A stretch of DNA of 21,583 nt. Origin: a virus. Below are positions 3 to 17,542 of this stretch, piece by piece (positions within the stretch are counted from its first letter, which is position 1; every line of letters starts with the position of its first letter). The translations under genes and the position numbers were made by a program. The notes beneath the pieces were generated by a model. The model was not told the origin of the DNA, ran no database searches, and was given only the letters and a program-made list of their open reading frames with translations. The DNA lies in UHGV virus genome UHGV-0131581. One strand, 5' to 3'.

Positions 3-131
3 CTGAAACTCTTTCTCAAGCATGGGCGGGTCAAGGTCGAGCTGGGTATTTGCCGAGGTAAGGCCCTGCACGACAAGCGAGATTCCCTGAAGAAGAAAGC
101 CATGCGCCGCGACCTTGAAAGGGGCGCCTGA
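3..131 (+). CDS. 3' end of an SmpB-like (tmRNA-binding protein) gene, 5'-truncated by the window edge
   Basis: Frame starting at nt 3 is open to TGA at 129-131 and translates ...[40 protein letters not shown]. The G-x-x-x-GK-x-x-HDKR-x-x-(L/I)K pattern and basic tail match the SmpB C-terminus as I recall it for E. coli (…[25 protein letters not shown]…). From memory only. Confidence 0.4.
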
Positions 132-144
132 TTTATGGTATAAT
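115..144 (+). promoter_or_regulatory. sigma70-type promoter with extended -10 (TTGAAA, 18-nt spacer, TGgTATAAT)
   Basis: TTGAAA at 115-120 and TGGTATAAT at 136-144, overlapping the stop of the upstream ORF; a GGAG Shine-Dalgarno lies about 12 nt before ATG 183. Confidence 0.5.
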
Positions 145-3776: not shown

Positions 3777-4058
3777 ATGGCACGTACTGTTTCCGCGAGA
3801 TTCACTGATATTGAATCCGCTATAGAAGAAGCCGTTTATTGTAGATTTTGCAACCCCTCCGCGGTACATAACTACGGAGTTATTGTTAAATATGGCAAGT
3901 TTGAGGTTAGAAGGGTGCGCGCCGACCGTCCATACGAGTTTTTATGGACAACAGAAAGCCTCATCCCGCGGTGCCACATTTACACAAGCGGTGTACATAC
4001 TATTTTTGTAGACCTTAACAAGAAAGATATTACCGTCACTAAAGGAGAGACAAATTGA
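3777..4058 (+). CDS. Small hypothetical protein (93 aa)
   Basis: Track ORF; GAGAG just upstream of ATG 3777; stop overlaps next start. Confidence 0.5.
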   Translation: MARTVSARFTDIESAIEEAVYCRFCNPSAVHNYGVIVKYGKFEVRRVRADRPYEFLWTTESLIPRCHIYTSGVHTIFVDLNKKDITVTKGETN

Positions 4059-4291
4059 TTACCAGCATCCCTAAACTGATTGAAAAGTACGGAAATATGT
4101 CGGAGACTTGCCGACAAACCGGTATCTGCGAGATGACGATTGCGAAGTACAGCAAAGACGTTGATTGCGAGCGCCACGTAATTTATAACAACCGTCTGAT
4201 GACGCACGTTAAGACAAGCCCGGTGTTATTCACGCGCCGGGGTATCACTAAAACTGAGCAACGCATTGCTAAAGAGGAGAGCAGGGAATGA
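4055..4291 (+). CDS. Small putative DNA-binding protein (78 aa, HTH-like segment)
   Basis: SETCRQTGICEMTIAKY resembles a helix-turn-helix recognition unit; coupled to both neighbours. Confidence 0.45.
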   Translation: MITSIPKLIEKYGNMSETCRQTGICEMTIAKYSKDVDCERHVIYNNRLMTHVKTSPVLFTRRGITKTEQRIAKEESRE

Positions 4292-4470
4292 TTGAGTTTT
4301 TGAAGGCACTTGATGCCGCGGGCAACCTGGTATTTTGGCTGGCCTTTTTCGTTGTGCTGATAAAACAACCGACTTTGTTTAACAGTCTTCCTGGCCATCT
4401 GTGGTGGCCTATGTTTTTAGGCATGGGGGTAACAGGAGTGGCAGGCGTCCTGTTGTGGTTTTTCAAATGA
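4288..4470 (+). CDS. Small membrane protein (60 aa, two hydrophobic helices)
   Basis: LVFWLAFFVVLI and WWPMFLGMGVTGVAGVLLWFF; GGAGAGCAGGGA upstream of ATG 4288. Confidence 0.5.
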   Translation: MIEFLKALDAAGNLVFWLAFFVVLIKQPTLFNSLPGHLWWPMFLGMGVTGVAGVLLWFFK

Positions 4471-4582
4471 GACTACTAATCATACCAAACGCCTGGGCTA
4501 TTGCCGTAGCTAACGACCACTACGGCGGCGATGGTAAAAGAGCACCTCGACACGGCCTATATAATTGATTGGAGAGCGAGAG

Positions 4583-4798
4583 ATGAAAGATATGGAACCC
4601 TTCAAGTGGAACCGCTCCGGAATACCACAACACGGCGAATACCCGGAACCGTATAAAAAGGTCGACGTGATAACAAGAAGCAAAGGACGAGATAAAAGTA
4701 TTAACTCCGGACAAGCGTACTGGAGCGGGTATAAGTGGCAGGGGCTTGATGGCTTTAAGATAGGATATTCCCGTGTAATACGCTGGATTGAATATTGA
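4583..4798 (+). CDS. Hypothetical protein (71 aa)
   Basis: ATG 4583 preceded by GGAGAG (4571-4576); the track's TTG 4565 start is treated as an over-extension. Confidence 0.45.
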   Translation: MKDMEPFKWNRSGIPQHGEYPEPYKKVDVITRSKGRDKSINSGQAYWSGYKWQGLDGFKIGYSRVIRWIEY

Positions 4799-4801
4799 TA
4801 C

Positions 4802-4825
4802 AAGCCCTCTACGGAGGGCTTTTCT
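4802..4825 (+). terminator. Rho-independent terminator
   Basis: AAGCCCTC (4802-4809), loop TACG, GAGGGCTT (4814-4821), then TTCT. Confidence 0.65.
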
Positions 4826-4879
4826 GTACATCCCGCCCAATCCCCTTATATAATCCATTTAGACGCGTAGGGCGCGTCT
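4825..4879 (+). promoter_or_regulatory. Promoter-like element (TGTACA, 18 nt, TATAAT at 4849-4854) followed by a perfect 7-bp hairpin (4861-4879) upstream of the terminase small subunit gene
   Basis: -10 TATAAT read directly; AGACGCG-TAGGG-CGCGTCT palindrome at 4861-4879. Confidence 0.4.
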
Positions 4880-4919
4880 GGTGCGCTCTGATGGTCAGAC
4901 GCATATGCAAGGGGATTCT

Positions 4920-5465
4920 ATGAAGCTGAAACTTAAGCAGCCATCTCCAGAGGTGGTGCAAGCTGCACATGAAGAAGCTGTTAGCGCAAACCGTCGCCGT
5001 AAACGGCCACGCGGTAAACAGAGCCTTTATCAATCATCCCGTAATTCCGCTGCGTTGTGGGACCCGGACTATTGTGACGAATTGATTCGTTTCTTCGACC
5101 GCACGTCATGGGAACTTGTGCCTACGTCTAAGGGCGACGAACGCCCGCTGATTCAGGATAAGCCACCGTCACTGGCCCGCTTCGCCTTACATATCGGCGT
5201 CACTATCCCGATTATCAAGCTGTGGCTGCGCGAGATTCCCGCATTTGCAGAAGCCTATGAAACGGCGCAGGCACTGGAAGAGGCATACTTCACTGAGACA
5301 GGCGCGGTGGGCATATCCGCTACGTTTGCCGCTGCGAAGCTAGGTCTTGGCAAAGAGAAACCGGTTGAATCCACCGAAGAAACAGCACCGACTGAGATTA
5401 TTTTCAGTGTCGCAGAGCCTGTAGGTAAAATCGTAACAACGAACATGGGCGAGGTAGAGGAATGA
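4920..5465 (+). CDS. Terminase small subunit (putative)
   Basis: Immediately upstream of and ATGA-coupled to the large terminase gene; basic N-terminus and HTH-like PSLARFALHIGVTIPIIKLWLREIPAFAEAYE; AAGGGGA RBS before ATG 4920. Track GTG start 4881 is possible but less likely. Confidence 0.5.
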   Translation: MKLKLKQPSPEVVQAAHEEAVSANRRRKRPRGKQSLYQSSRNSAALWDPDYCDELIRFFDRTSWELVPTSKGDERPLIQDKPPSLARFALHIGVTIPIIKLWLREIPAFAEAYETAQALEEAYFTETGAVGISATFAAAKLGLGKEKPVESTEETAPTEIIFSVAEPVGKIVTTNMGEVEE

Positions 5466-6712
5466 GTATTCAGCTATCCGCCCCGCAGGCACTGTTCCTG
5501 AATTGCGATAACAAATACAAGGCCTATGTCGGTGGCTTCGGCAGCGGCAAGACATTTGTTGGCTGTCTGGACCTGCTTACGTTTATGCTCAAGCACCCCG
5601 GTACGCGCCTGGGCTACTTCGGCCCGACCTATCCAGCTATCCGCGACATCTTCTACCCGACATTCGAGGAGGCGGCGAACCTGCTCGGGCTCGATGTGCT
5701 GGTTAAATCCGGCGACAAAGAAGTCGTGGTTACTCGTGGTAAGACGGTGCTCGGTACGGTTATCTGCCGTTCGATGGATAACCCAGGTTCTATCGTTGGT
5801 TTCAAAATCGCGGCTGCGGTCGTGGATGAACTCGATGTATTGAGTCGTGAGAAAGCTGAGCTGGCATGGAACAAAATTGTTGCCCGTATGCGTCTTGTTA
5901 TTCCTGGCGTAACTAACCACATCTCTGTAACCACGACGCCGGAAGGGTTCAAGTTCGTCTTTGCCAAGTTCAAAGATAACCCGACACCGAGTTACTCAAT
6001 GGTGCAGGCTTCAACACACGAGAATGCGCGATTCCTGCCGCCGGATTACATTAGCTCGCTGACAGAGACTTACCCGGCGCAACTGATTAACGCGTATCTG
6101 AATGGTGAGTTCGTCAACCTGACCTCCGGCAGCGTGTATTACGCATACGACCGCCACAAACATCGCAGCAAAGAGACAATTCAACCGGGCGACACGCTGT
6201 ACATCGGCCAGGACTTCAACGTTACTAAGAACGCCAGCGCCGTATATGTGCAACGTAAAGACGGCTGGCACGCGGTGGCAGAACTGAAAGGACTGTTCGA
6301 TACGCCAGATACTGTGCGCGTAATTACCGAGAAGTGGAAGTCGCAAGGCCACCGCATCGTCGTTTATCCCGACGCCAGCGGCAAGAACCGCAAAACCAAC
6401 TCGGCATCAATCTCCGATATTGCATTACTCCAGCAGGCCGGCTTCGATGTTCGCGCTAAATCCGCCAACCCCCCGGTTAAAGACCGTGTTTTAGCCGTGA
6501 ATACCGCACTGGAAAAAGGTAAGCTGTGGGTTAACGACCACTTATGCCCTGAGATAGCTAAGACGCTGGAGCAGCAGGCATACGACGATAACGGGGAGCC
6601 ATCCAAAGATGGCATCATCGACCATATGGCGGATGCTCTCGGCTATCCTGTAGTTTACGAGATGCCAGTGGTCAAACCAGTAATCAACATCCCGGTGACT
6701 TTCGCACTTTAA
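5462..6712 (+). CDS. Terminase large subunit
   Basis: Walker A-type motif VGGFGSGKTF near the N-terminus; 416 aa; positioned directly before the portal gene. Confidence 0.85.
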   Translation: MSIQLSAPQALFLNCDNKYKAYVGGFGSGKTFVGCLDLLTFMLKHPGTRLGYFGPTYPAIRDIFYPTFEEAANLLGLDVLVKSGDKEVVVTRGKTVLGTVICRSMDNPGSIVGFKIAAAVVDELDVLSREKAELAWNKIVARMRLVIPGVTNHISVTTTPEGFKFVFAKFKDNPTPSYSMVQASTHENARFLPPDYISSLTETYPAQLINAYLNGEFVNLTSGSVYYAYDRHKHRSKETIQPGDTLYIGQDFNVTKNASAVYVQRKDGWHAVAELKGLFDTPDTVRVITEKWKSQGHRIVVYPDASGKNRKTNSASISDIALLQQAGFDVRAKSANPPVKDRVLAVNTALEKGKLWVNDHLCPEIAKTLEQQAYDDNGEPSKDGIIDHMADALGYPVVYEMPVVKPVINIPVTFAL

Positions 6713-6724
6713 GAGGATTATTCA

Positions 6725-8206
6725 ATGTTAACTATGAACGGTCAGAATCAGGGTGTTAAGACAAAACACCGGGAATGGCTGCATCACTTCAATAAATGGC
6801 AGAAGGTACGCCACGCGCTGGAAGGCGACCTTATTCGCTATCTGCGCAACGTCGGGAAGAACGAGCCGGACCAGAAATACGCAGACCAGCGCCAGGAAGA
6901 ATATGAGAACGGCGCTATCTGCTACAACTTCACGAAACGTACCCTGGCTGGGATGGTCGGCAGTGTCATGCGCAAAGACCCTGAACAGATTATTCCTACT
7001 GAAATGGAGTACCTGTTACGCAATGCCGACGGTTCTGGTGTCGGGTTGTGGCAGCACGCGCAGGATACGCTGATGGAGATTGACTCGGTAGGCCGTGGCG
7101 GGTTGCTGGTTGATGCGCCAGAGACCGCCGCGGCAACGGCAGCCGAACAGAACGCTGGATTATTAAACCCGGTCATCGCATTCTATACCGCAGAGAACAT
7201 CATCAACTGGCGACTGACACGCGTAGGTTCAGTGAACCGTGTGACTATGGTCGTGCTGCGTGAGGCATGGGAATACTCAGAACCGGGTGCGGAGTTCGAA
7301 ACCAAGTTTGGCGAGCAATACCGCGTCCTTGACCTGATTGACGGTCGTTATCGCCAGCGAATATATCGTTTCGATGCCGAAGGCGGCGCACAGGATGAAG
7401 TGATCGAAATATTCCCGGAACTCGGAGAACAGTTGCGCGGCAAAATCCCCTTCACGTTTATCGGGGCGAGCAACAACGACGCTACTATTGACGATGCGCC
7501 TTTGCTGCCGTTGGCTGAACTTAATATCGGACATTTCCGCAACAGCGCGGACAATGAGGAGTCCAGCTTCGTTGTAGGCCAACCCACTCTGTTCATCGCC
7601 CCAGGCGAGAACATGAGCATGGAACAGTGGAAAGAAGCCAACCCTCACGGCGTACGCATGGGGTCGCGCTCGGGTCACAACATCGGTTACGGCGGCAATG
7701 CGTTTCTGGTTCAGGCGGAGGAGAACAACCTCGCTAAGCAGAACATGCTGGATAAAGAGAATCAGGCAATCCAGATTGGCGCGCAGCTTATCACCCCGAC
7801 GCAGCAAATCACCGCTGAATCGGCCAGACTGCAACGCGGCGCCGACACGTCTGTTATGGCGACAATCGCTCGTAATGTAAGCATGGCGTATACAGATGCG
7901 TTGCGCTGGGTTGCTGCGATGCTTGGATTGCGTGAAGACACCGAGATTGAGTTCAAACTGAACATGGAGTTCTTCCTGCAACCGATGACCGCGCAGGACA
8001 GAGCGCAGTGGATGGCAGATATTAACGCGGGCCTGTTACCGGCCACCGCTTATTACGCGGCATTGCGCAAGGCCGGTGTAACTGACTGGACAGATGAGGA
8101 CATTCAGAATGCTATTGAGGATGTCCCTTTGCCGTTAGGTGCTGTTACTCAGGTAGCAGGAGAGATTCCGCAGGCGGCGCAGCAACAAGACGCCGCTCAG
8201 CAGTAA
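6725..8206 (+). CDS. Portal protein
   Basis: 493-aa protein directly downstream of the large terminase and upstream of the head-morphogenesis gene; AAGAGGA RBS; acidic Gln-rich C-terminus. Assigned by size and synteny, not motif. Confidence 0.7.
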   Translation: MLTMNGQNQGVKTKHREWLHHFNKWQKVRHALEGDLIRYLRNVGKNEPDQKYADQRQEEYENGAICYNFTKRTLAGMVGSVMRKDPEQIIPTEMEYLLRNADGSGVGLWQHAQDTLMEIDSVGRGGLLVDAPETAAATAAEQNAGLLNPVIAFYTAENIINWRLTRVGSVNRVTMVVLREAWEYSEPGAEFETKFGEQYRVLDLIDGRYRQRIYRFDAEGGAQDEVIEIFPELGEQLRGKIPFTFIGASNNDATIDDAPLLPLAELNIGHFRNSADNEESSFVVGQPTLFIAPGENMSMEQWKEANPHGVRMGSRSGHNIGYGGNAFLVQAEENNLAKQNMLDKENQAIQIGAQLITPTQQITAESARLQRGADTSVMATIARNVSMAYTDALRWVAAMLGLREDTEIEFKLNMEFFLQPMTAQDRAQWMADINAGLLPATAYYAALRKAGVTDWTDEDIQNAIEDVPLPLGAVTQVAGEIPQAAQQQDAAQQ

Positions 8207-8242
8207 GTATGCTTATAGCTCCGAAAGGGGCTTTCTTATAGT

Positions 8243-9319
8243 ATGCTATTAACTTTAGCGCCACAGGGTTTATCTATGAGCTTACTTACATCCCTAATCA
8301 GCCACCAGATATGGCTGCAACGCACCGCATCCGGTGAAGTGAAAGACCTTGCGCCGTTTCTTCAGGAAATGCGGGACGAAATCAAACGGCAGGTGCTGTT
8401 ATTCGGTGACGACGGGCGAAGCACCGCGCGACTAAATAAACTGTTACGCGACCTTGAAGAAGCATTAACAGGACTTACTGGTGACTGGCGGACAAAGCTG
8501 ATAGAAGACCTCAAAGAACTGGCAGCGTACGAGGCTGAGTGGAACGTAAAGACTCTGACCACTAACGTAAATGGGGAATTTGTTACGCCTACTGCCGAGC
8601 AAGTGTGGGCCGCCGCCGAGTTTCAACCTCTGGCGTTGAACGACAAGCCTGTTGACTTCACTAAGCTGATGGACGGCTGGGGTGAAACAGAAGTCGCGCG
8701 CCTTGTAACCGGCGTTAAGATGGGTTTCGTACAAGGTCAAACCACACGGCAGATTGTTAAAAGCGTAGTCGGCGCGGGCGGACTGGCCGACATCTCTGAG
8801 CGCAACGCAGCTACGGTAATACGTACTGCGCTGTCTCACGTGTCCAACGAAGCCCGTAACGAGACGTACCGCCAGAACGACGACATCATCGAGAAGTACG
8901 AGTGGGTGTCAACGCTGGACAGCCGTACCAGTACGATTTGCAGAGCCAGAGACGGAATGACATGGGAAATTGGTAAAGGGCCGATGCCTCCAGCCCATCC
9001 GAATTGTCGGTCGTGCACGGCCCCGGTAATCAGTTCAGAGTTCGACTTCCTCGATAAAGGCGCAAAACGTGCGGCTAAGGGTGCGGACGGCGGTACTCAG
9101 GTAAGCGCGGACACCACTTACTACGAGTTCCTGAAACAACAACCGGCATGGTTTATTGATGAAGCTCTCGGCCCGGTTCGCGGTAAGATTTTCCGCAACA
9201 GCGGTATATCGCCGGAAGAGTTTCGCGTAATATCTGTAGATGGTTTCGGGAATCCGCTGACACTTAAGCAGATGGCGGAACTCGATAAACGTGTTGCTGA
9301 TTATCTGAAAGGGGATTAA
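8243..9319 (+). CDS. Head morphogenesis protein (Mu F / SPP1 gp7-like minor head protein)
   Basis: ATVIRTALSHVSNEARNETYRQ ... WVSTLDSRTSTICRARDGMTW ... PPAHPNCRSCT matches the Mu-F-like domain pattern; position after portal. Start could be ATG 8243 or ATG 8276. Confidence 0.75.
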   Translation: MLLTLAPQGLSMSLLTSLISHQIWLQRTASGEVKDLAPFLQEMRDEIKRQVLLFGDDGRSTARLNKLLRDLEEALTGLTGDWRTKLIEDLKELAAYEAEWNVKTLTTNVNGEFVTPTAEQVWAAAEFQPLALNDKPVDFTKLMDGWGETEVARLVTGVKMGFVQGQTTRQIVKSVVGAGGLADISERNAATVIRTALSHVSNEARNETYRQNDDIIEKYEWVSTLDSRTSTICRARDGMTWEIGKGPMPPAHPNCRSCTAPVISSEFDFLDKGAKRAAKGADGGTQVSADTTYYEFLKQQPAWFIDEALGPVRGKIFRNSGISPEEFRVISVDGFGNPLTLKQMAELDKRVADYLKGD

Positions 9320-9780
9320 TGATGGGCTTTTTCAAAGTAACTGACGTACCGTCGCGTCGCGTAGTCCAGTACGCCCGCGTGTCTGGCTCCGGCGAGAACG
9401 TGGTGTTTATTGAAGACGAAAGTGTACTTGGCACACCGGTAGATGATATGCCGTTTGCGGATAAAACCGGTATTGCGCTACCGGCCGCGGGTATGCTTTA
9501 TGAGATTCCGTATCTGGCGGACGCTGGCGACGTGTATTTCTCTGCGCAACCGCAGGACGCTGAACTGGTAGACGGAAGCGCGGTAATCACGGTTGAAGTT
9601 AAGGCGGGTAAAGCACCGTATGCTCTGACCTGGTACAAAGACGGAAAGGAAGTGGTTAATGCGCCAGAAGAGGCTTTGTCTCTGACGGTTAATGCGGTAG
9701 GTGAATACTTCGTGAAAGTTACTGATGCCGGTGGTGTAGAGGCCGTGAGTAAAGCGGCGAATGTCACTAAGCCAGAATAA
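9319..9780 (+). CDS. Structural protein with C-terminal Ig-like domain
   Basis: YALTWYKDGKEVVN ... GEYFVKVTDAGG resembles an I-set/Big-type Ig fold; ATGA-coupled to the head morphogenesis gene. Confidence 0.5.
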   Translation: MMGFFKVTDVPSRRVVQYARVSGSGENVVFIEDESVLGTPVDDMPFADKTGIALPAAGMLYEIPYLADAGDVYFSAQPQDAELVDGSAVITVEVKAGKAPYALTWYKDGKEVVNAPEEALSLTVNAVGEYFVKVTDAGGVEAVSKAANVTKPE

Positions 9781-9784
9781 TGCG

Positions 9785-9805
9785 AAGCCCCGGAAGGGGC
9801 TTTTT
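9785..9805 (+). terminator. Rho-independent terminator
   Basis: AAGCCCC-GGAA-GGGGCTT followed by TTT. Confidence 0.75.
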
Positions 9806-9842
9806 AGTGCCTGTGATTATTCCAGTTATTCCTCTCAATTGT

Positions 9843-9900
9843 AAATGTTGGAATAAACTATTCGAATAGTTGACTTTTCACTAAAAATGTGCTAAGCTCC
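9843..9900 (+). promoter_or_regulatory. Promoter region with conserved upstream motifs (ATGTTGGAATAA and GAATAGTTGAC) and TTGACT -35-like element
   Basis: TTGACT at 9871-9876; the two motifs recur at 10611-10640 upstream of the scaffold gene. Confidence 0.45.
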
Positions 9901-10078
9901 ACCTGAGCTTGTGAAGTATGAACAAGCGACCGCGGCGCGGGCAGGTAACGGAGCGGGACGTAAGTCCTGAGTGTAGTTACGCTGACGCGTTCGGAAGGGC
10001 CATACTCTATTGCTTGTGTAAAAAGTAACTGGTTTACTGAGATTACGCCGTTTCTATGTTTAAATGATAAGGACTAGC

Positions 10079-10108
10079 GCCCCGCTTTAAGGCGGGGCTT
10101 TACTTATC
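10079..10108 (+). terminator. Terminator- or attenuator-like hairpin upstream of the spanin genes
   Basis: GCCCCGC (10079-10085), 6-nt loop, GCGGGGC (10092-10098), then TTTACTTAT. Confidence 0.4.
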
Positions 10109-10122
10109 GAGAAAGGAGAAAC

Positions 10123-10509
10123 ATGAATCTTAAAGCAACTGTCGTAGCGGGAGCATGTTTCATCATCCTGTTATATGCGCACGGCTACTATCAATACCGC
10201 ATCGGCTGGAACGAAGGCCGGGCGAATCTCGTTTCGCAGCAACAACAGAAAGCGCAGGCTGAGTTAGCAAAGAAAACACAACGGCAGCAGCAGGACGAAT
10301 CGAAGGCCGCAGCCGCTGATAACGAAGGCAAGACGAAATCAGAGGTGATTACCCGTGAAGTCGTTAAGTACATTAAAACGCCTGGTCGCAGCGTGTGCAC
10401 TTTTGACCCTGAGCGCGTGCAGCTCAAGTCCCGAGCCGTCGCGAATGCCAATTCCATCCCCGGATACGACGATGATGCAGTCGCCGTGCAAACTGGCCCC
10501 GCCAAGTAG
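10123..10509 (+). CDS. i-spanin (Rz-like inner-membrane spanin subunit)
   Basis: N-terminal TM helix (VVAGACFIILLYAHGYY), Gln/Ala/Lys-rich coiled-coil region, AAGGAG RBS, and a lipoprotein gene in its +1 frame. Confidence 0.65.
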   Translation: MNLKATVVAGACFIILLYAHGYYQYRIGWNEGRANLVSQQQQKAQAELAKKTQRQQQDESKAAAADNEGKTKSEVITREVVKYIKTPGRSVCTFDPERVQLKSRAVANANSIPGYDDDAVAVQTGPAK

Positions 10510-10618
10510 CGACGCCGATGAGGATTTGGCTATCGACGTTCAGAACGCAGAATGCGTACGGCAACTGAGGCTGAAAGTGTTCATGTTGCAGGATTACGTG
10601 AGGAATATTCTGGAATAG
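10355..10618 (+). CDS. o-spanin (Rz1-like outer-membrane lipoprotein), overlapping the i-spanin gene in the +1 frame
   Basis: MKSLSTLKRLVAACALLTLSAC: signal peptide with lipobox L-S-A-C, followed by a Pro-rich mature region (SSSPEPSRMPIPSPD); extends past the Rz stop (overlapped architecture). Confidence 0.65.
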   Translation: MKSLSTLKRLVAACALLTLSACSSSPEPSRMPIPSPDTTMMQSPCKLAPPSSDADEDLAIDVQNAECVRQLRLKVFMLQDYVRNILE

Positions 10619-10674
10619 TTGCCTTGCATGTTGGAATAATTTATTCTTGACATGTAAATCCGGGTGGCCCGGAT
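10611..10674 (+). promoter_or_regulatory. Second copy of the conserved motif pair plus TTGACA and an 8-bp hairpin, upstream of the scaffold gene
   Basis: GAATAGTTGCC (10613-10623) and ATGTTGGAATAA (10629-10640); TTGACA 10647-10652; AATCCGGG-TGG-CCCGGATT at 10656-10674. Confidence 0.45.
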
Positions 10675-10700
10675 TCCAACGTCCAGGGGACATACTGACT

Positions 10701-11402
10701 ATGAATCGTTTTTTACGTTATCCGTTCCAGGAAGAAGCTGGGGTAGAAGATAAAGCTGGTGGCGGTGACGCGCCGAAAATGTTCACCGCTGAAGAAGTTC
10801 AGGTGCTGATTGAGAAAGAAGTTGCCGGGCTTAAGGCCAATCAGGAAGCATTGCTGGCGGAGAAGAAAGAAGCCGCTCGCAAAGCAAAAGAAGCCGAAGA
10901 AGAACGGCAGCGCGCGCATCAGGAGGCGTTAAAAGCCGCTGGTAAGATGGACGAGTTCGAAAAAACGATTCGTAGCCAGTATGACCCGGTGCTAGCCGAG
11001 AAAGATGGTCGCATCTCCAGAATGGCGGAGCGCATCCTCGGCAGCGAACGTAAAGCGGTGCTAGGCTCTTTCGCGGGCGACTTTATTACCCCGGAAGCGG
11101 TGGACATTCTTGCACCGTTCGTTAGGACTGAGTTTGAAGGCGATGATGTGGTTACTAAGTTTGTTGGTGCAGACGGTAACGTAATCACGACTGACCCTGA
11201 ACAGTTCCGCAAATACCTGCGCGAACACAAAGCGTTTTCGCATTTGATTAAAGCAAATGCAGCTTCCGGCGGCGGGGCTTCCGGTGGCAAAGGCGGCGGG
11301 GCCGCACCAGCGTTTAAAGACATGAGTGAATCGGAGCGTTTGGCTCTGTATAAATCGAACCCTGCCGAATTTGAACGGCAACTTAAAGCCCTGAGGAAAT
11401 AA
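10701..11402 (+). CDS. Scaffolding protein (putative)
   Basis: Acidic, Ala/Glu/Lys-rich coiled-coil protein directly upstream of the major capsid gene; ATG 10701 preferred over the track's TTG 10647. Confidence 0.55.
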   Translation: MNRFLRYPFQEEAGVEDKAGGGDAPKMFTAEEVQVLIEKEVAGLKANQEALLAEKKEAARKAKEAEEERQRAHQEALKAAGKMDEFEKTIRSQYDPVLAEKDGRISRMAERILGSERKAVLGSFAGDFITPEAVDILAPFVRTEFEGDDVVTKFVGADGNVITTDPEQFRKYLREHKAFSHLIKANAASGGGASGGKGGGAAPAFKDMSESERLALYKSNPAEFERQLKALRK

Positions 11403-11404
11403 TA

Positions 11405-12454
11405 ATGGCAATTACCACTATCGGCGATATCGTAACTGGCAACATCCCGGTCCTTGCGTCTTATATGACAGAGGACCCGGTAGAAAAAACCGCGTTCTTC
11501 CAGTCTGGTATTCTTACCCCGACTCCATACGCTGCCGAGATTGCCCGAGGCCCGTCCAACGTCGCTAATATTCCTTTCTGGAAAGCGATTGACACCTCTA
11601 TCGAGCCTAACTACTCGAACGACGTATACCAGGACATCGCTACCCCGCGTAATGTGCAGACCGGTGAGATGATGGCGCGCGTTGCGTACCTGAACGAAGG
11701 CTTTGGCCAGGCAGACCTGACGGTTGAACTGACCAGCGAGAATCCGCTGCAATCCGTGGCTTCTCGTCTTGATAACTTCTGGCAGCGCCAGGCACAACGT
11801 CGTCTTATTGCTACCGCGCTCGGTCTGTACAACGACAACGTAGCCGCTACCGATGCTTACCACGAGCAGAACGACATGGTTATCGACGTGTCTGCTACTC
11901 TGGGCTTTGACGCAGGCGCATTCATCGACGCTACCCAGACTATGGGTGATGCGCTGATGGACAACGGCGGTGAAGTGCTGGGCGCTATTGCGATGCACAG
12001 CTTCGTTTATGCTCAGGCGCGTAAGCAGCAGCTTATCGACTTCATCAAAGACGCCGACAACGACACCCTGTTCGCCACCTACCAGGGTTACCGTGTGATT
12101 GTTGATGACAGCATGACCGTGGTCGGAACTGGCCCGAGCCGCAAGTTCATCTCTATCATCTTCGGCAACGGTGCTATCGGTTACGGTGAAGGCAATCCGT
12201 CTAACCCGCTGGAATACGAGCGTGAAGCGTCTCGTGGTAACGGTGGTGGCGTTGAAACCCTGTGGACCCGCAAGACTTGGTTGCTGCATCCTCTGGGCTA
12301 CAGCTTCACCAGCGCGGTAATCACCGGTAACGGCACCGAGACTACCCCACGCTCTGCCTCCTGGCAGGACCTGGCGAACGCCTCCAACTGGAACCGCGTG
12401 GTTGACCGTAAGCACGTACCGATTGCCTTCCTGGTAACTGGTGTAGGTGCTTAA
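11405..12454 (+). CDS. Major capsid protein
   Basis: 349-aa protein immediately after the scaffold gene and followed by a strong terminator, the usual high-expression capsid arrangement. Assigned by synteny. Confidence 0.7.
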   Translation: MAITTIGDIVTGNIPVLASYMTEDPVEKTAFFQSGILTPTPYAAEIARGPSNVANIPFWKAIDTSIEPNYSNDVYQDIATPRNVQTGEMMARVAYLNEGFGQADLTVELTSENPLQSVASRLDNFWQRQAQRRLIATALGLYNDNVAATDAYHEQNDMVIDVSATLGFDAGAFIDATQTMGDALMDNGGEVLGAIAMHSFVYAQARKQQLIDFIKDADNDTLFATYQGYRVIVDDSMTVVGTGPSRKFISIIFGNGAIGYGEGNPSNPLEYEREASRGNGGGVETLWTRKTWLLHPLGYSFTSAVITGNGTETTPRSASWQDLANASNWNRVVDRKHVPIAFLVTGVGA

Positions 12455-12470
12455 GGTTAAGTTATAATCG

Positions 12471-12494
12471 AGAGGGACTTCGGTCCCTCTTTTC
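12471..12494 (+). terminator. Rho-independent terminator after the major capsid gene
   Basis: AGAGGGAC (12471-12478), loop TTCG, GTCCCTCT (12483-12490), then TTTC. Confidence 0.75.
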
Positions 12495-12513
12495 ATTTAC
12501 TAAGAGGTAAATT

Positions 12514-12768
12514 ATGGCTAAGACCGGAAAGGGCTTACCGCGCAGCCTTGAGAACACCGATTTCAGCAGTGTTGTGCCAGAAGCAACGGCAGAAACCGCT
12601 GGGCTGGTTAAGAAAGGCGCCGCGGTAACTGACATCGGCTCGCAAACTGTTACTGGTGAAGAGGCCGCCGCAGTTGCTACGTCCGCGCAGACTGCGGTTA
12701 ACGCCGTAGGTACTAAACTAAACGCACTTCTGGCGCAACTCCGCGCCGCCGGTGTAATCGAATCATAA
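12514..12768 (+). CDS. Small Ala-rich hypothetical head-associated protein (84 aa)
   Basis: AAGAGG RBS; located between the capsid gene and an Ig-like protein gene. Confidence 0.4.
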   Translation: MAKTGKGLPRSLENTDFSSVVPEATAETAGLVKKGAAVTDIGSQTVTGEEAAAVATSAQTAVNAVGTKLNALLAQLRAAGVIES

Positions 12769-12778
12769 GGGGATTAAA

Positions 12779-13132
12779 ATGGTTGATGTAATCAAACGTC
12801 GTATTACCGGTGTTTCTGACGACTCTCCCGCCGACGGCCAGGTTGAAATCGACATGGCAAATATCGCGCCAGCATCTTTTTCTACCGCGCTTGCTGCTAC
12901 TACCGCTGTTACTGCACCTAACGCGTTAACCCTTACCGTTGTGGCGACCGGTGGGCTGGCGCCTTATTCCTATCAGTGGTTCAAGGATAACAACGCCATC
13001 TCAGGCGCTACAGCGGCTACGTACACCAAAGCCACCACTGTTGCATCTACCGATTCTGGTACGTATAAAGTGGTTGTTCACGATGTGTATGGTAATATTA
13101 TCTCCAGTAGCTCCGTAGTAACTGTATCTTAA
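12779..13132 (+). CDS. Ig-like domain protein (possible capsid decoration)
   Basis: YSYQWFKDNNAISGATAATYTKATTVASTDSGTYKVVVHDVYGN is an Ig-like (I-set/Big-type) pattern; AAGGGGA RBS. Confidence 0.5.
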   Translation: MVDVIKRRITGVSDDSPADGQVEIDMANIAPASFSTALAATTAVTAPNALTLTVVATGGLAPYSYQWFKDNNAISGATAATYTKATTVASTDSGTYKVVVHDVYGNIISSSSVVTVS

Positions 13133-13168
13133 TGCAACGGCCCTTCGGGGCCGTAATAAGGAAAGGTC

Positions 13169-13348
13169 ATGGCAGATAATTACGTAATCCGCGAAAAGTA
13201 CACCCACGTTGATGTTGTCGACGGTCAGGTGATGCCGGTTCGCGGTGTTGTAGAAGCGGGTGAACTGGTTGCGACCCAACCGGACAGCGAAGAAGCGCAC
13301 AACAACGGCGGTGGTGTTAAGCGTCGTCGCCGTAAGTCAGAGGAATAA
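13169..13348 (+). CDS. Small hypothetical protein (59 aa)
   Basis: ATG 13169 preceded by AAGGAAAGG; translates MADNYVIREKYTHVDVVDGQVMPVRGVVEAGELVATQPDSEEAHNNGGGVKRRRRKSEE; below the ORF-track cutoff. Confidence 0.4.
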   Translation: MADNYVIREKYTHVDVVDGQVMPVRGVVEAGELVATQPDSEEAHNNGGGVKRRRRKSEE

Positions 13349-13351
13349 TTT

Positions 13352-13864
13352 ATGCCGCTAATCGTGGAAGATGGGTCAATAGTACCTGGCGCTGACAGTT
13401 ACGTTAGTCTGGCTGACGCCCGCGCGTTAGCGGCTAATTATGGTCTTGAGCTGCCGGAAGACGATACCGCGGCAGGGGTGGCCTTGCGCAACGGCGCTAC
13501 TTATGTCGGGCTTGCAGAACCGCAGATGTGCGGTCGTCGTGTATCCGCAGAGCAGTCTCTTGCGTACCCGCGAACCGGCGTAACGCTAAATGGGTTCCCT
13601 GTAGCAAACAATGTCATTCCGAAGCAGATAATTCTTGCGCAGGTAATCGCCGCCGTTACATATGGCGCAGGCACCGAAGTGCGCGCCAACTCAGACGGTC
13701 GTTCCGTGCAGACGGAGCGTGTAGAGGGTGCAGTAACGGTGACATACTTCAACAACGGCAACAGTGGTGCTACGACCTCGATCACCGCTGCGGACGACGC
13801 TTTACGCCCGCTACTGTGTGGCGGACTTAACAATGGCTTCTCATTTAACGTGTACCGGGGTTAA
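13352..13864 (+). CDS. Putative head-tail connector/adaptor protein
   Basis: 170-aa protein between head and tail genes; AGAGGAA RBS. Function inferred from position only. Confidence 0.35.
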   Translation: MPLIVEDGSIVPGADSYVSLADARALAANYGLELPEDDTAAGVALRNGATYVGLAEPQMCGRRVSAEQSLAYPRTGVTLNGFPVANNVIPKQIILAQVIAAVTYGAGTEVRANSDGRSVQTERVEGAVTVTYFNNGNSGATTSITAADDALRPLLCGGLNNGFSFNVYRG

Positions 13865-13866
13865 AA

Positions 13867-14484
13867 ATGGCGAAGACTAAGACAGAGATGTTTACCCTTA
13901 TAGGTGCTAACCTTCCTGATAACACCACCGGACTTATTACCCCCGCCGCATTGCGTGAAGTAATGACACAGATGGCGGACTCGCCTATTTACGCCACTCC
14001 TGGGGTGAAAGAGGTTGAAGTTCTCCGCGCCGCGTCGACCGTGGTACAAGCGCCTACCGCAGTAGATACAGCATTGCAGTTAACTTTCGGCTCTGCTCAG
14101 GGTAGCGCATCTGACCCGGTAATGATTAATGCCGCCGGGCTGGTTACGTTCAACACCGCGGGTAACTACGCCGTTCGCATCAAGTTACAGGCTGGGCGCA
14201 CGGGTGCTAGCGGCACGTCTATCCTGTTATCGCGTATTCTTCTGAACGGCGCTCAGTACGGCTCGCCAGCAGCTACTAAACTGGTAAGTGCCGACACCAC
14301 AATCCCGATTGAGTCCCGCGTTGTTATTAACCCAACCGCGGGCCAGACGTTTGCCGTTCAGATTATGCGGGATAGTGCTGGAACTAACTTCGGCGGCGTA
14401 TACCCGCAAGCGGCTACGGTAACCGCATGGGGTACCGCCCCGTCAGCACTACTGGTTATTTCGAGACTGGAGGCCGCCGGATGA
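13867..14484 (+). CDS. Hypothetical structural protein (205 aa)
   Basis: Tightly packed in the head-tail joining block; stop overlaps the next start (ATGA). Confidence 0.4.
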   Translation: MAKTKTEMFTLIGANLPDNTTGLITPAALREVMTQMADSPIYATPGVKEVEVLRAASTVVQAPTAVDTALQLTFGSAQGSASDPVMINAAGLVTFNTAGNYAVRIKLQAGRTGASGTSILLSRILLNGAQYGSPAATKLVSADTTIPIESRVVINPTAGQTFAVQIMRDSAGTNFGGVYPQAATVTAWGTAPSALLVISRLEAAG

Positions 14485-14840
14485 GCACCACTTTCAGTAA
14501 ACGTATGCAAGGCGTTGGTACGCGCCTGCTAACCAAATTTGGTAGCACGGTATCTCTGATTCGCGCTGGCTCGAAAGTGTGGGATGAAGTTCTTGGTGAG
14601 TACGTCTGGTCTGCTAATGAAGTGTTGCCGTTGAAGGCGGTTCCGGTTCCGGTAAACGCGGGGCTGATAAACGGTACGACGATTCGGGCGGGCGACATGA
14701 TTGTTAAAGCCGATTGCAGTGTCGTTCCTAAGATGGAAGACAAGGTGCAATTCGGCGGCGAGCAATGGTCTGTCGTAGCTATTGAGAAGAAGATGGTTAA
14801 CGACGACGCCGTGACCTACTTTATTCAGGTGAGAAAATGA
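14481..14840 (+). CDS. Putative head-tail joining protein (120 aa)
   Basis: ATG 14481 with GGAGG RBS; the track's 14427 start is treated as an over-extension; ATGA coupling on both sides. Confidence 0.4.
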   Translation: MSTTFSKRMQGVGTRLLTKFGSTVSLIRAGSKVWDEVLGEYVWSANEVLPLKAVPVPVNAGLINGTTIRAGDMIVKADCSVVPKMEDKVQFGGEQWSVVAIEKKMVNDDAVTYFIQVRK

Positions 14841-15232
14841 GTTTCGCGCTTGATGTCTCTAAGTTCGTGGAAAAGGCGAAGAAGAATCCCGAGAAGGTTA
14901 TGCGCCAGGTGTCTATCAAGCTGTTTTCCGCTATCATAAAGGCGACGCCAGTTGATACTGGTCGTGCGAGAAATAACTGGTTTGCGTCAGGCAGTACCCC
15001 GTCGCAGGAAACTACGACCTACGGCGCACCGCAAGGGACGGCTACTATACAGCGTGTTACTGCGGTTATAAACACCGCTACAGACTGGGGCGAGTTCACA
15101 CTTACCAATAACCTGCCGTATATACAGCGGCTTGAGTATGGCTGGTCGCAACAGGCCCCACAAGGTATGGTAAGGACTAATATATCGCGTTTCCAGCAAC
15201 TCATTAACGAAGAAGCCAACAAGGTGAAATGA
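14837..15232 (+). CDS. Putative neck/tail-completion protein (HK97 gp10-like by position)
   Basis: 131-aa protein in the conserved slot before the tail terminator and major tail genes; ATGA coupling. Confidence 0.35.
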   Translation: MSFALDVSKFVEKAKKNPEKVMRQVSIKLFSAIIKATPVDTGRARNNWFASGSTPSQETTTYGAPQGTATIQRVTAVINTATDWGEFTLTNNLPYIQRLEYGWSQQAPQGMVRTNISRFQQLINEEANKVK

Positions 15233-15645
15233 TGGGCTACTTTGAGGACTTAACAAAAGCGTTTGATGTTCCGCTGGTAGCCTTCGGAAACACCAACGGC
15301 ATCAAGGTTGCGCTTGAAAATATCGACGCGCCGACGTCTACCGATACACCGTATCTGGCGAGTTACATGTTGCTGGCGGATACCGAGCAGGCGGATTTGT
15401 TCTTCACAGAACAACGCGCTGGTGTCTATCAGGTCGACATTAACTACGCATCGGTGAAGGGTAGCGCGCCAATCAATAAAATGGCAGACTTACTTAACAC
15501 GGCGTTTAAAGCAGGTAAGTCATTTTCACGTAACGACATCTGCGCCGAGGTTCAATCGGTTAGCCTGGGGCCGCTGATTGTAGAAAACGGATGGGCCAAA
15601 CGACCATTGTCAATTAACTTTATTGCATTCACCAAGAGGCTGTGA
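15229..15645 (+). CDS. Putative tail terminator protein
   Basis: 138-aa protein immediately upstream of and coupled to the major tail protein gene. Position-based. Confidence 0.35.
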   Translation: MMGYFEDLTKAFDVPLVAFGNTNGIKVALENIDAPTSTDTPYLASYMLLADTEQADLFFTEQRAGVYQVDINYASVKGSAPINKMADLLNTAFKAGKSFSRNDICAEVQSVSLGPLIVENGWAKRPLSINFIAFTKRL

Positions 15646-16814
15646 ATATGGCTACAACTCCTTTTAAGGGCGCGAATACCGCGCAATTCTATGTGGCGGA
15701 AGTGACCCCGGGCGTAACACCTGATAACCCGGTCTGGTCGCCGTTGCGCAACACAGGCGGTGTTCCCGCCGTTACCCGCGACACGCTGGCCTCCAACGAA
15801 CTGGACGGCAGCCGTGAAACTACATCCATCCGCACCGGTAACAGGCAGGTTAGCGGGGAATACGCAATTGAGCTTAGCTCGAAAAGCCAGGACGACTGGC
15901 TGGCTGGCGCTTTAGGCTCTACGTGGCAGTCAGGGGCTTCTCTGTCAGGGTTATCGATTACCGTTGCACCGGCGGGTAAGACGTTCACCCGTGCTGATGG
16001 TAGCTTTATTACCGACGGCGTTGAAGTGGGCGACCTGATTGCGTTTACCGACTTAACGGGCGACAACGCTAAGCCGTTTATCGTTACTGCGGTAGAGGCA
16101 CTGGCGGTAACAGGTGCAGGTATCCAGCACACTCTTACCGCGGAGACTGTCACTACCGCGGCCAAAACTGGAGATAAACTGGAAACCGGTAACCAATGTA
16201 AGACGTTCTCTATTCTCACCTGGTACAAAGGCCAGTGCGGAGGGGCCAGTGTATATACGCTGACCAAAGGCGTTGAAGTTTCGGGTTTTACCGTTGAACA
16301 GGCAGTTAATGCGATGGTAACTGGCAGCTTCCCGTTCATCGGTCGCAGTCAGGAGATTCTCACCGAGCAGCCGTCCGGTTCCGACTTCTCTTCCGTTACG
16401 TTTGGTGACGAGCCGTTCTCCTCGGTTGACGTTTCTGTGTTCGATGGGTCTACGCCGTTGCGTTGCGACAGTCTGACCATCACTAACGACAACAGCGCGT
16501 CCGCACAGTTCGAACTCGGCAACACTAACGTGGCCTTTGTGGAACGTAGCCGCGCAGCTAACACATTCTCTATCTCCGGCAAACTGTACGACATGGCTAT
16601 GATTCAGAAGTTTATCAACGAACAGCAGGTAGAGATTAACTCTATTCTGGCTGGGGTAAACGGTGCTATGTCTTTCAGTTTGAAACGCGCAGAGCTTACG
16701 GCGGTTACGCCAGAGATTGGCGGACCTGAGTCAATCACTCAGTCCATTGAAGGACAGTCCACAGGCAATCAATATCAATCATCTATCGTAATTCAACGTA
16801 TTAGTTACGCGTAA
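15642..16814 (+). CDS. Major tail protein
   Basis: 390-aa Thr/Ser/Gly-rich protein preceding the chaperone and tape-measure genes and followed by a strong terminator. Synteny-based. Confidence 0.6.
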   Translation: MNMATTPFKGANTAQFYVAEVTPGVTPDNPVWSPLRNTGGVPAVTRDTLASNELDGSRETTSIRTGNRQVSGEYAIELSSKSQDDWLAGALGSTWQSGASLSGLSITVAPAGKTFTRADGSFITDGVEVGDLIAFTDLTGDNAKPFIVTAVEALAVTGAGIQHTLTAETVTTAAKTGDKLETGNQCKTFSILTWYKGQCGGASVYTLTKGVEVSGFTVEQAVNAMVTGSFPFIGRSQEILTEQPSGSDFSSVTFGDEPFSSVDVSVFDGSTPLRCDSLTITNDNSASAQFELGNTNVAFVERSRAANTFSISGKLYDMAMIQKFINEQQVEINSILAGVNGAMSFSLKRAELTAVTPEIGGPESITQSIEGQSTGNQYQSSIVIQRISYA

Positions 16815-16816
16815 GG

Positions 16817-16840
16817 AAAAGGCCCCGAAAGGGGCCTTTT
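16817..16840. terminator. Bidirectional rho-independent terminator between convergent genes
   Basis: AAAAGGCCCC-GAAA-GGGGCCTTTT: a GC stem with GNRA-type loop flanked by A-run and T-run, so it can terminate from either direction. Confidence 0.8.
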
Positions 16841-16841
16841 C

Positions 16842-17072
16842 TTACTCATCAATATTGCTTCGGTATTCCCGCAACTTCTCCAGACTTTCAATTGCTTCTG
16901 CTAAGTCGGTTACGGTGTCCTTGTGCCCACGTAAACCCATGCACAATAGCTTCTTCAATGCGTGCTGTAACGCCGGGTCGCGGATGTCGAAGGCGCGCAG
17001 CACATCGTAAACGTCTACGGTCATAGTGCTGCCGTGAGTGTTTGTCATTGTGCGGTTGTATTTTGAAGTCAT
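16842..17072 (-). CDS. Small hypothetical protein (76 aa)
   Basis: Minus-strand ORF ATGA-coupled to the HNH gene; contains DVYDVLRAFDIRDPALQHALKKLL. I do not recognise the family with certainty. Confidence 0.5.
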   Translation of the reverse strand: MTSKYNRTMTNTHGSTMTVDVYDVLRAFDIRDPALQHALKKLLCMGLRGHKDTVTDLAEAIESLEKLREYRSNIDE

Positions 17073-17542
17073 TTTCCGTGCCTCTCAGTAAAGTCTTTCT
17101 TTTCTTTGTAAAAACATTCTGCATATCTCACGGCGTCTTCTTTTTGGTCAAAACGCTTGGCTATCCTATTCCCGTTATATTGAATTTGAACGACCCATTT
17201 ACCGTTATATGTTTTACTAACCCCGGTAACACCAGACGAGTTATCCCTGCGCTTTGCTGCATTTTTGCAGTTTATGTGCCGGTCGCACAGTCGAAGATTC
17301 TCTATACGGTTATCGCTTTTCACACCGTTTATATGGTCAATCTCCTTGCCTTCTGGTATAGCTCCGTTAAACATTTCCCATATAATTCTGTGGGCGAATG
17401 TCATTTTTGATCCTAGTTTAGTTCTTACATATCCGCGGTGGTCAACGTACCCTACTTTACGTCCTTTCGGGTACTTAGGGTTTACGCTGTCCTTAGCGTA
17501 AAGATTCCCGTTTTCGTATTCGTAAACGTTATTCCATGTCAA
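17069..17542 (-). CDS. HNH homing endonuclease with AP2-type DNA-binding domain
   Basis: YVDHRGYVR ... IDHINGVKSDNRIENLRLCDRHINCKN (HNH_3-type core) followed by SGVTGVSKTYNGKWVVQIQYNGNRIAKRFDQKEDAVRYAECFY (AP2-like). Confidence 0.85.
   Translation of the reverse strand: MTWNNVYEYENGNLYAKDSVNPKYPKGRKVGYVDHRGYVRTKLGSKMTFAHRIIWEMFNGAIPEGKEIDHINGVKSDNRIENLRLCDRHINCKNAAKRRDNSSGVTGVSKTYNGKWVVQIQYNGNRIAKRFDQKEDAVRYAECFYKEKKDFTERHGK

Follow-up and report, generated by a model that had tools for sequence, protein, structure and literature searches.

The intergenic region preceding the spanin genes of a Kagunavirus-like siphophage (Guernseyvirinae) is a single conserved non-coding unit (positions 9816-10122), in which an operator-flanked promoter is followed by a structured leader that runs into the spanin genes and onward in the direction of the scaffold and capsid genes. 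It was analysed within a window of 21,583 nucleotides (the whole stretch of DNA studied here, from virus genome UHGV-0131581), which shares an identical stretch (3921-18385) with IMG/VR contig 3300045988_007060. The unit is placed between a Hoc-like/Ig-like gene and the i-/o-spanin pair, and the leader measures 217 nt up to the spanin start (Table 1). We are highly confident that this leader is a real, selected, non-coding structured RNA, and as judged by homology searches it is an undescribed, modular leader-RNA family confined to Guernseyvirinae. The most likely reading of its role, to which we give roughly one chance in three, is that it acts in cis and modifies transcription elongation in the manner of put/nut-like antitermination.

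Table 1. Positions of the leader RNA, its parts and the neighbouring features in the window
Feature	Positions	Strand	Basis or remarks
Internal terminator	8217-8232		
Hoc-like/Ig-like head decoration gene	9319-9780		Upstream neighbour of the RNA unit
Intrinsic terminator ending the head-gene block upstream of the unit	9785-9805	+	AAGCCCC-GGAA-GGGGCUU, then UUU; read from the sequence
Operator-like DNA 5' of the promoter	9816-9869		TTATTCC twice (9817-9823, 9826-9832), TGTAAAT (9840), GGAATAA (9850), TATTC
Extended -10 sigma-70-type promoter	9870-9898	+	TTGACT (9870-9875), 17-nt spacer, TG (9890-9891), TAAGCT (9893-9898)
Non-coding leader, ~204 nt, joined to the spanin mRNA	9905-10108	+	Conservation; no Rfam family, no tRNA
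P1, 5'-terminal hairpin	9907-9927	+	GCUUGU/ACAAGC, 9-nt loop
36-codon Arg-rich ORF, not a gene	9918-10028	+	Frameshifts; no third-position bias
P2, long irregular hairpin (65 nt)	9930-9994	+	Covariance model R1, RNAalifold
Conserved tail	9995-10015	+	AAGGG-N8-UAUUGCUU (AAGGG-N8-UAUUG); invariant alignment columns
AU-rich linker with 1-2 weak hairpins, e.g. AGUAA/UUACU	10016-10065	+	RNAalifold, 27 K-type sequences
3' rod hairpin, 43 nt	10066-10108	+	Fold z = -4.11; covarying stems
i-spanin	10123-10509	+	ATG at 10123
o-spanin, embedded in i-spanin	10355-10618	+	
Second operator-motif cluster	10602-10675		GGAATA three times, TTTATTC, TTGACA, TGTAAAT; hairpin 10657-10675; just 5' of the scaffold gene
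Scaffold gene	10701-11402		3' of the spanins
Major capsid gene	11405-12454		3' of the scaffold gene
Strong terminator 3' of the capsid gene	12470-12491		

The 342-nt intergenic region is at least 95% identical in 179 database phages (Kaguna type, K), and a diverged, alignable Jersey-type version (J) exists in ~266 further phages. Some 460 phages encode a capsid protein with at least 60% identity to that of the window (89-99% in nearly all cases), and the K and J carriers together (~450) make up almost this entire set. When the window was compared with Salmonella phage SP-101, the RNA was 97-98% identical, as against 85% for the Hoc-like gene, 78% for the spanin gene and 81% for the scaffold gene. 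According to a sliding comparison, SP-101 is a recombinant of Jersey background into which a K-type module has been set (the Hoc-like gene, the RNA unit and the initial ~100 nt of the spanin gene), and the RNA is the slowest-evolving part even within this module. The first-pass annotation had envisaged, as evidence against its own proposal, a poorly conserved region between conserved flanks; the reverse was observed (97-98% for the RNA vs 78-85% for the flanks), and by this comparison purifying selection is stronger on the RNA than on the neighbouring genes.

No model of Rfam 15 (4,227 models) matched anywhere in the window at the gathering score, and in E-value mode the best matches for the unit and the Jersey locus reached 13-22 bits against thresholds of 35-72 (E ~0.9-9.4). 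ARAGORN found no tRNA or tmRNA genes in the window and 10 homologous loci, and a "tRNA-Ser" annotated in phage horsemountain is spurious, as it lies on the opposite strand over the terminator upstream of the unit. Copies recognised by our covariance model (R1) were restricted to Guernseyvirinae-like contigs from IMG/VR and metagenomes and to two stray contigs filed under bacterial genomes (6-kb and 0.7-kb), which are taken to be phage-derived; none was present in 5,426 complete E. coli genomes. A single "plasmid" match turned out to be a mislabelled Kagunavirus, and a host or prophage origin was rejected. Matches to ACCGCGG-N-TTCGGAAGGG outside Guernseyvirinae (in IMG/VR, metagenomes and genomes) were considered to be chance, being rejected by the covariance model, and the 14-mer ACCGCGCGGAAGGG was too short for informative matching. 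A search of the literature gave no description of this leader RNA, and a bulk catalogue of viral structured RNAs may hold an anonymous entry. In that work, comparative genomics applied to intergenic regions from IMG/VR predicted 10,006 viral csRNAs, motifs at most 25 nt upstream of genes among them (PMC10690425); its text, as distinct from the supplements in which anonymous entries sit, names no spanin-associated, Salmonella or Guernseyvirinae motif.

The promoter-like element previously noticed at 9871-9900 is present, with coordinates that were off by at most 1 nt, and is retained in every homologue. In the window, its core reads TTGACT, 17 nt, TGcTAAGCT. All homologues share the -35 element, the spacing, TGn and TA[AC]GCT, and the Jersey type reads TTGACT/TAGACT, 17 nt, TGtTACGCT. 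The -10 element TAAGCT agrees with TATAAT at three of six positions, and a generic promoter scan gives no call at 9870-9898; no other consensus-type promoters were called by scan on the plus strand between 4825 and 19088, and counts of promoter-like and terminator-like elements in the region showed no excess over shuffled sequence. Judging from the promoter spacing, transcription would start near G9905/A9906. The spanin genes are probably transcribed from this same promoter, because there is no space for another one between the rod hairpin and the Shine-Dalgarno sequence. Upstream, the terminator that closes the head-gene block has a counterpart annotated as a terminator in the record of phage Sciku. 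The operator-like DNA between this terminator and the promoter forms the left border of the conserved unit, and BLAST aligns Kaguna- with Jersey-type phages over this stretch only. Its motifs are kept in the K, J and SP-031/phiEap-2 (S) types, and in phages carrying an upstream insertion identity is retained from position 9818 on. A motif scan located clusters of these operator motifs only at 9816-9869 and 10602-10659; the shared motif suggests one DNA-binding regulator at two promoters, and the cluster before the scaffold gene is probably a second promoter under the same regulator.

The leader begins with a 5' domain of ~110 nt, composed of P1, P2 and the AAGGG...UAUUG tail, which is followed by the linker and the rod. 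In the Jersey type P1 is replaced by ACGCU-UUC-AGCGU, and in a second copy of the domain (copy 2, see below) it reads GCUUGU...GCAAGC with a different loop. From base to tip, P2 consists of a CCG/CGG base, bulged C9933, GGCGCG/CGCGUU, an internal loop GG/A, CAG/CUG, bulged G9981, GUAAC/GUUAC, a conserved asymmetric loop GGAG/AGUGUA and the apical hairpin CGGGAC-GUAA-GUCCUG. Across types, the lower stem is maintained as GGNGCG/CGCN'UU and the apical hairpin is variable. The base of P2 is invariant (ACCGCGG...UUCGGAAGGG), and the invariant core of the family is formed by ACCGCGG and the conserved tail. The hairpins of the AU-rich linker show single wobble-compatible changes only and are weakly supported.

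The P2 model was derived by reading variants and was then encoded as covariance model R1. In the R1-fitted alignment of 45 distinct sequences, 95.8% of the cells were paired, compared with 28-40% when the partners were slid, 11 pairs had changes on both sides (104 cells) and the observed score was reached by none of 500 shuffles, values that have to be read with regard to the derivation of the model from the same sequences, the model-fitted nature of this alignment and the close relatedness of the sequences. An alignment made by MAFFT only gave 93.2% paired cells vs 31-41% slid, and RNAalifold recovered P2 with nine compensated pairs. One P2 base pair is C-G in 25, U-A in 17 and A-U in 3 of the distinct sequences, and C9936-G9989 is a covarying position of P2. 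Covariation across related phages, which the first-pass annotation had proposed as a check, was thus found as compensatory base changes in P2, in its apical hairpin and in the rod. P2 alone of the window variant folds to the model structure (z = -2.55), and single-sequence folds of copy 2 and two J variants gave the same architecture; for the full 5' domain of the window variant, the minimum free energy fold prefers a helix between the 5' end and the tail over P1. The folding z-score of the whole unit is only -1.77. Considering that pattern counts and folding energy do not rise above chance, the case rests on conservation and covariation, and the invariant G-U pairs indicate that the structure is specific to the plus-strand RNA. 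A pseudoknot between the P1 loop (AGUAUG) and the tail (CAUACU) was discarded as it exists in the commonest K variant only and not in K1G, copy 2 or the Jersey type. By eye, readings of the conserved loops as boxA, K-turn, sarcin-ricin or T-loop motifs gave no consistent match.

The only plus-strand ORF of at least 30 aa inside the unit is the 36-codon Arg-rich ORF. It is annotated as a CDS (hypothetical protein) in the Sciku record and others, and its Arg-rich N-terminus is superficially like arginine-rich RNA-binding peptides, so that a functional small protein might be imagined. However, of the 27 distinct K sequences six carry single-base indels that leave only 9 or 17 aa of the ORF, its ATG and the 10 following nt are deleted in the Jersey type (~266 genomes), its variable sites number 5/3/1 on codon positions 1/2/3, and it lacks a Shine-Dalgarno sequence. 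The chance that this peptide is the functional product is very small, and we regard the idea as refuted for practical purposes, in agreement with the earlier impression that the unit contains no convincing ORF. A mini-ORF starting from the conserved UUG of UAUUG was also rejected, as it is broken in K1G (UAUCG) and L109 (UAUUA). Many genome records carry a spurious 36-aa or 63-aa "hypothetical protein" over the RNA, which needs correction.

The rod at the 3' end of the leader is built from an outer stem GAUAAG/CUUAUC, a 3-nt bulge GAC, UAG/UUA, a C-U mismatch, an inner GC stem and the loop UUAA. Its inner stem (10079-10098), GCCCCGC(U)/(G)GCGGGGC, has eight pairs, seven of which are G-C, and is the top-listed terminator-like site within 8000-12000. 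The inner stem covaries (C-G, U-A, A-U and G-C), the outer stem of the Jersey type differs compensatorily (UAUACG/CGUAUA), the sequence of the 3-nt bulge is free to vary, and one rod variant is a perfect 18-bp helix. Four nt separate the end of the rod from the Shine-Dalgarno sequence AAGGAG (10113-10118). The first-pass annotation had described here a GC-rich hairpin with a T-rich tract before the spanin ribosome-binding site. The hairpin holds up; the T-rich terminator does so only in part, as TTTACTTATC is the 3' strand of the rod, its T's being paired with upstream bases, and its Jersey-type counterpart, TTAGCGTATA, is not T-rich. The K-type hairpin passes the terminator scan with five T in eight, and its only contiguous run is UUU. 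The GC stem of J copies is followed by UUAGCGUA, so the family as a whole does not conserve a canonical intrinsic terminator. The original proposal of a small RNA or a structured leader/attenuator is retained as to the structured non-coding RNA; its terminator/attenuator part is not general, as there is no U-tract in Jersey-type leaders or after the last hairpin of Cornellvirus-type leaders. The inner stem of the K rod, CCCCGC/GCGGGG, is the same as that of the type I-E repeat of E. coli. CRISPR-repeat mimicry was rejected, as the stem covaries freely and the flanks differ, and the only Rfam CRISPR match was CRISPR-DR52 (20.7 bits vs a threshold of 50) on the opposite strand.

These properties of the rod bear on the possibility of a riboswitch-like or protein-dependent attenuator of the spanin genes, in which the 5' domain would sense a ligand or factor and decide on termination at 10079-10098. 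The order of promoter, conserved structured domain, GC hairpin, Shine-Dalgarno sequence and gene is the classical one for such a device, and the core nucleotides are conserved as expected from it. But K has a weak U-tract (UUUA), J (UUAG) and the S- and C-type leaders have none, and the U's are paired into the rod. We looked for a conserved, mutually exclusive pairing between the conserved domain and the hairpin and found none, nor did we find sequestration of the spanin Shine-Dalgarno sequence. Considering further that the hairpins of the domain follow one another in a line, without any multi-helix junction, and that the same domain also stands before unrelated early genes, attenuation seems very unlikely.

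In every Guernseyvirinae lineage examined, structured leaders with several hairpins stand before the spanin genes. The spanin leaders of Cornellvirus-like relatives are rearranged and retain this core. In SP-031 and phiEap-2 the operator and the promoter are kept, the core is contiguous (GAGACCGCGCGGAAGGGYC) and the P2-like hairpin has moved upstream. St162, SE1 and Pantoea AH01 contain ACCG-GUC-AAACA-GAC-AU-CGG-GG among several covarying hairpins; this core, which includes a short hairpin, is followed by AUAGUCUAUU in St162 and SE1, and Pantoea AH01 diverges there. Seen across these lineages, the K/J domain is one version within a modular set of RNAs that lead into the spanin genes. As ACCGCG and CGGAAGGG are contiguous in SP-031 and phiEap-2, the conserved bases of the core must be more than the base of a helix, and the P2-base helix cannot be essential in every type. 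It is possible that the core is a sequence-specific protein site.

The presence of such leaders in all lineages could also be understood if they served the processing or stability of the mRNA. P1 and the structured domain would then protect the late spanin-scaffold-capsid mRNA from 5'-end-dependent decay, and the rod (~18 bp) would be an RNase III-type site whose cleavage parts the coding mRNA from a leader fragment that is stable; T7 early and late mRNAs and the lambda N leader are precedents. Consistent with this explanation, P1 is found at the inferred 5' end in every type, and the architecture of the rod is conserved, with outer and inner stems that covary, a bulge whose sequence is free to vary and, in the Jersey type, no U-tract. 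However, simple stabilisers need neither the invariant nucleotides of single strands and junctions (ACCGCGG, CGGAAGGG and UAUUG) nor 98% identity, and the copying of the promoter and 5' domain to an early operon without the rod would go unexplained. We think a role in processing or stability somewhat unlikely.

This second copy of the promoter and 5' domain was detected by a pattern scan in a subset of Kagunaviruses, including the window's own genome. In a related Kagunavirus contig (L022), it is situated ~11.6 kb upstream, i.e., ~1.7 kb before the start of the window. BLAST returned 254 places in 211 records, and the surplus of 43 implies that up to ~43 database phages carry copy 2; K1G and Jersey have the spanin copy only, and the early operon of K1G has a different 5' leader. 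Copy 2 shares the sequence from the -35 element through UAUUG and then continues into a different 3' part without the rod; it also lacks the operator motifs TTATTCC, TGTAAAT and GGAATAA. It adjoins a divergent HTH-type gene and heads the rightward early operon, and it is followed by a long-stem terminator-like structure with UUUU, and possibly by a further promoter, before the first ORF. Since the promoter and domain also head an early operon in some Kagunaviruses, the conserved 5' domain is not specific to the spanin genes.

Paralogous copies within one genome, with a conserved scaffold and variable 3' parts, might also be expected of a trans-acting RNA, whose conserved 5' domain would bind or titrate a host or phage protein or carry a base-pairing region. 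Termination or processing at the rod would set this RNA free, and copy 2 would be a second gene of the family. In the K type, a promoter belonging to the unit is combined with a terminal hairpin that carries UUU; UUUU follows the long stem at the end of copy 2, and selection is very strong; the long-stem structure and the possible further promoter after copy 2 would also fit a stand-alone RNA gene. Nevertheless, the leader has no Hfq-type U-tail (no run of four or more U), transcription of the Jersey copies, which are devoid of any U-tract, has to continue into the spanin genes, and the conserved part shows tight structure and does not resemble a seed. A search for trans targets within the phage yielded one 12-mer complement (10039-10050 vs 18358-18369) where ~0.5 is expected, which is not above chance. 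We consider an action in trans as unlikely as a role in processing or stability.

We consider that an effect on transcription elongation agrees best with these observations. The inferred transcription start marks the beginning of the conserved part, and promoter and conserved part were duplicated as one, as would suit an element that is coupled to its promoter and works co-transcriptionally. Each of the two copies stands at the head of a long plus-strand operon with internal terminators (8217-8232, 9785-9805 and 12470-12491) and no other called promoter between 4825 and 19088, which favours modification of elongation; and the occurrence of two paralogous copies in one genome 3' of promoters favours a put-like mode. 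According to this reading, the 5' domain would act in cis, during transcription, upon the very RNA polymerase that synthesised it, with or without the help of a bound factor from host or phage, and the polymerase would become resistant to pausing and termination. Transcription might then continue beyond the rod hairpin and the terminator at 12470-12491 as far as the distal head and tail genes, and the same effect at copy 2 would carry it through the long early-right operon. Against antitermination, copy 2 is optional and the domain is dispensable at the early operon of K1G, there is no likeness to put in sequence or structure, the core of SP-031-type leaders is contiguous, and terminators after capsid genes are usually leaky. 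A more specific version, in which the 5' domain would be an independent second phage RNA class that binds host RNA polymerase directly and confers protein-free resistance to termination in the way of HK022 put, is in our opinion quite unlikely. If true, it would be the first put-like element in virulent siphophages, and promoter and domain would form a module movable before other operons, as copy 2 illustrates.

Guernseyvirinae (Kagunavirus, Jerseyvirus and Cornellvirus) are among the most often isolated candidates for therapy against E. coli and Salmonella. A covariation-supported family that evolves several-fold more slowly than the surrounding genes provides a testable handle on late-gene regulation, and BASEL Kagunavirus isolates, K1G and CM001 are tractable carriers. 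Should the leader be an antiterminator or a protein-binding element, it would represent a new RNA class as well as a portable promoter-leader module for phage engineering.

Among known systems, putL/putR of phage HK022 are similar in that a structured non-coding RNA lies just 3' of a sigma-70 promoter and heads a long operon, that two paralogous copies exist per genome, and that the stem-loops contain bulges. However, the cis-acting put RNA is ~70 nt long with two stems and a triplex, whereas the domain described here has ~110 nt with a short P1 and the 65-nt P2; HK022 is lambdoid, whereas the carriers here are virulent siphophages in which copy 2 is optional. Searching the HK022 immunity region with R1 without filters gave at best 5.3 bits (E = 1.9), in a comparison made in one direction. 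Antitermination by put is factor-independent and operates via the beta' zinc-binding domain of RNA polymerase.

The lambda leader composed of PL, nutL, the RNase III hairpin and N offers a second parallel, with a promoter, a conserved RNA site near the 5' end, a long hairpin abutting the ribosome-binding site and then the first gene. The PL and PR'-6S RNA-tR' leaders of lambda are 223 and 194 nt long, respectively (vs 217 nt here), and the late leader PR'-6S RNA-tR' directly precedes the lysis genes and then the head genes; the spanins here are the equivalents of Rz/Rz1. Unlike the lambda 6S leader, the RNA described here is itself under strong structural selection. No N- or Q-like gene was identified. 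The boxA consensus of lambda nut sites is GCUCUUUA, and boxB is a hairpin with a conserved GNRA-like loop. A lambda-type nut site was rejected here: in the best boxA-like stretch, CUCUAUUG, one position varies freely (C/G/U/A), and the apical loops, which read GUAA, GUUAA, AUUA, CUCG or UCACAA, are too diverse for a conserved boxB-like loop. Finally, the 5'-terminal hairpin and the bulged ~18-bp rod just before the coding region resemble the ompA 5' UTR and the RNase III sites of T7. Those elements tolerate sequence change, whereas the junction and single-stranded nucleotides of the present leader are invariant across diverged types.

Phage SP-101, classed as a Jerseyvirus, bears a Kaguna-type module that comprises the Hoc-like gene, the RNA unit (the leader RNA and its promoter) and the i-spanin gene as far as codon ~35. 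When positions 9334-10230 of the window were compared with the corresponding loci of SP-101 and Jersey, the breakpoints of this module were found to be sharp, lying near 9330 and near 10230. The Hoc-like allele and the N-terminus of the spanin travel with the RNA type. On its left, the conserved unit has its border defined by an insertion found in many Kagunaviruses: two small reverse-strand genes that lie after the Hoc-like gene's terminator and before the operator at 9818 (phage fBC-Eco01 is an example). Positions 1-37 of the 342-nt intergenic region used as BLAST query are absent from many matches. The insertion marks this site as a hot spot where small accessory genes insert.

The RNA-spanin cassette is bracketed by two clusters of the same DNA motifs (see the table), and TGTAAAT occurs in the window only at 9840 and 10653, once in each cluster. 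Cluster 1 is kept in the Kaguna-type, Jersey-type and rearranged SP-031/phiEap-2 versions of the leader. Cluster 2 lies upstream of the scaffold gene, with a hairpin (10657-10675) after it. Both clusters are putative operators, probably for one regulator acting at two promoters. Further downstream, a strong terminator-like hairpin lies within the head-tail operon, 16 nt past the major capsid gene, and genes beyond it must depend on read-through.

Features located in the window and in compared phage loci
Feature	Location	Strand	Remarks
Promoter-like site ahead of SecY-like ORF	window 115-144
SecY-like ORF, 336 aa	window 183-1193	+	Pfam SecY, E = 1.3e-41
Motif cluster 1	window 9816-9869		TTATTCC/GGAATAA three times, plus TGTAAAT
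Motif cluster 2	window 10602-10675		TTATTCC/GGAATAA three times, plus TGTAAAT
Strong terminator-like hairpin	window 12470-12491	+	9 pairs, UUCG loop, T-rich tail
Two-gene insertion	fBC-Eco01 (L006) 688-1130	both genes reverse
Annotated 'tRNA-Ser'	horsemountain (L115, NC_073171) 572-649	minus	overlaps Hoc-like gene 3' end and terminator
Early-operon leader	Kagunavirus contig (L022) 11580-11960	minus
Early-operon leader	K1G (L112) 36680-37100
Early-operon leader	Jersey (L113) 38860-39240

At the left end of the window, the SecY-like ORF is a truncated SecY homologue, its Pfam match covering profile positions 5-156 of 306. No database phage exceeds 43% identity over the SecY part, and Guernseyvirinae hypothetical proteins match only the last ~45-95 aa (the best match, the last ~45). 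The ORF looks like a rare insertion joined to a resident small ORF; alternatively, it is possibly an assembly chimera.

The 'tRNA-Ser' annotated in horsemountain looks spurious, since ARAGORN calls none in 10 homologous loci other than that of horsemountain itself. The PLSDB entry CP088689.1 (44,086 bp), filed as a non-mobilisable E. coli plasmid, is a Kagunavirus genome and has the two copies of the RNA, at 99% identity. The element is present as well on two genome contigs (L192 and L202), one from a 'Bacillota MAG' and the other a Taishania scaffold of 738 nt; both look like phage contamination or mis-binning.

The rightward early operon in the Kagunavirus contig L022, K1G and Jersey opens with a non-coding leader of ~350-450 nt. 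In the Kagunavirus loci, this leader includes a long-stem terminator-like structure and, ahead of the first ORF, a conserved stretch of ~90 nt with a possible second promoter. The K1G leader lacks the 5' domain (P1, P2 and the tail of the RNA) and has a GCCCCGC...GCGGGGC hairpin. The leaders of all three are built from exchangeable modules.
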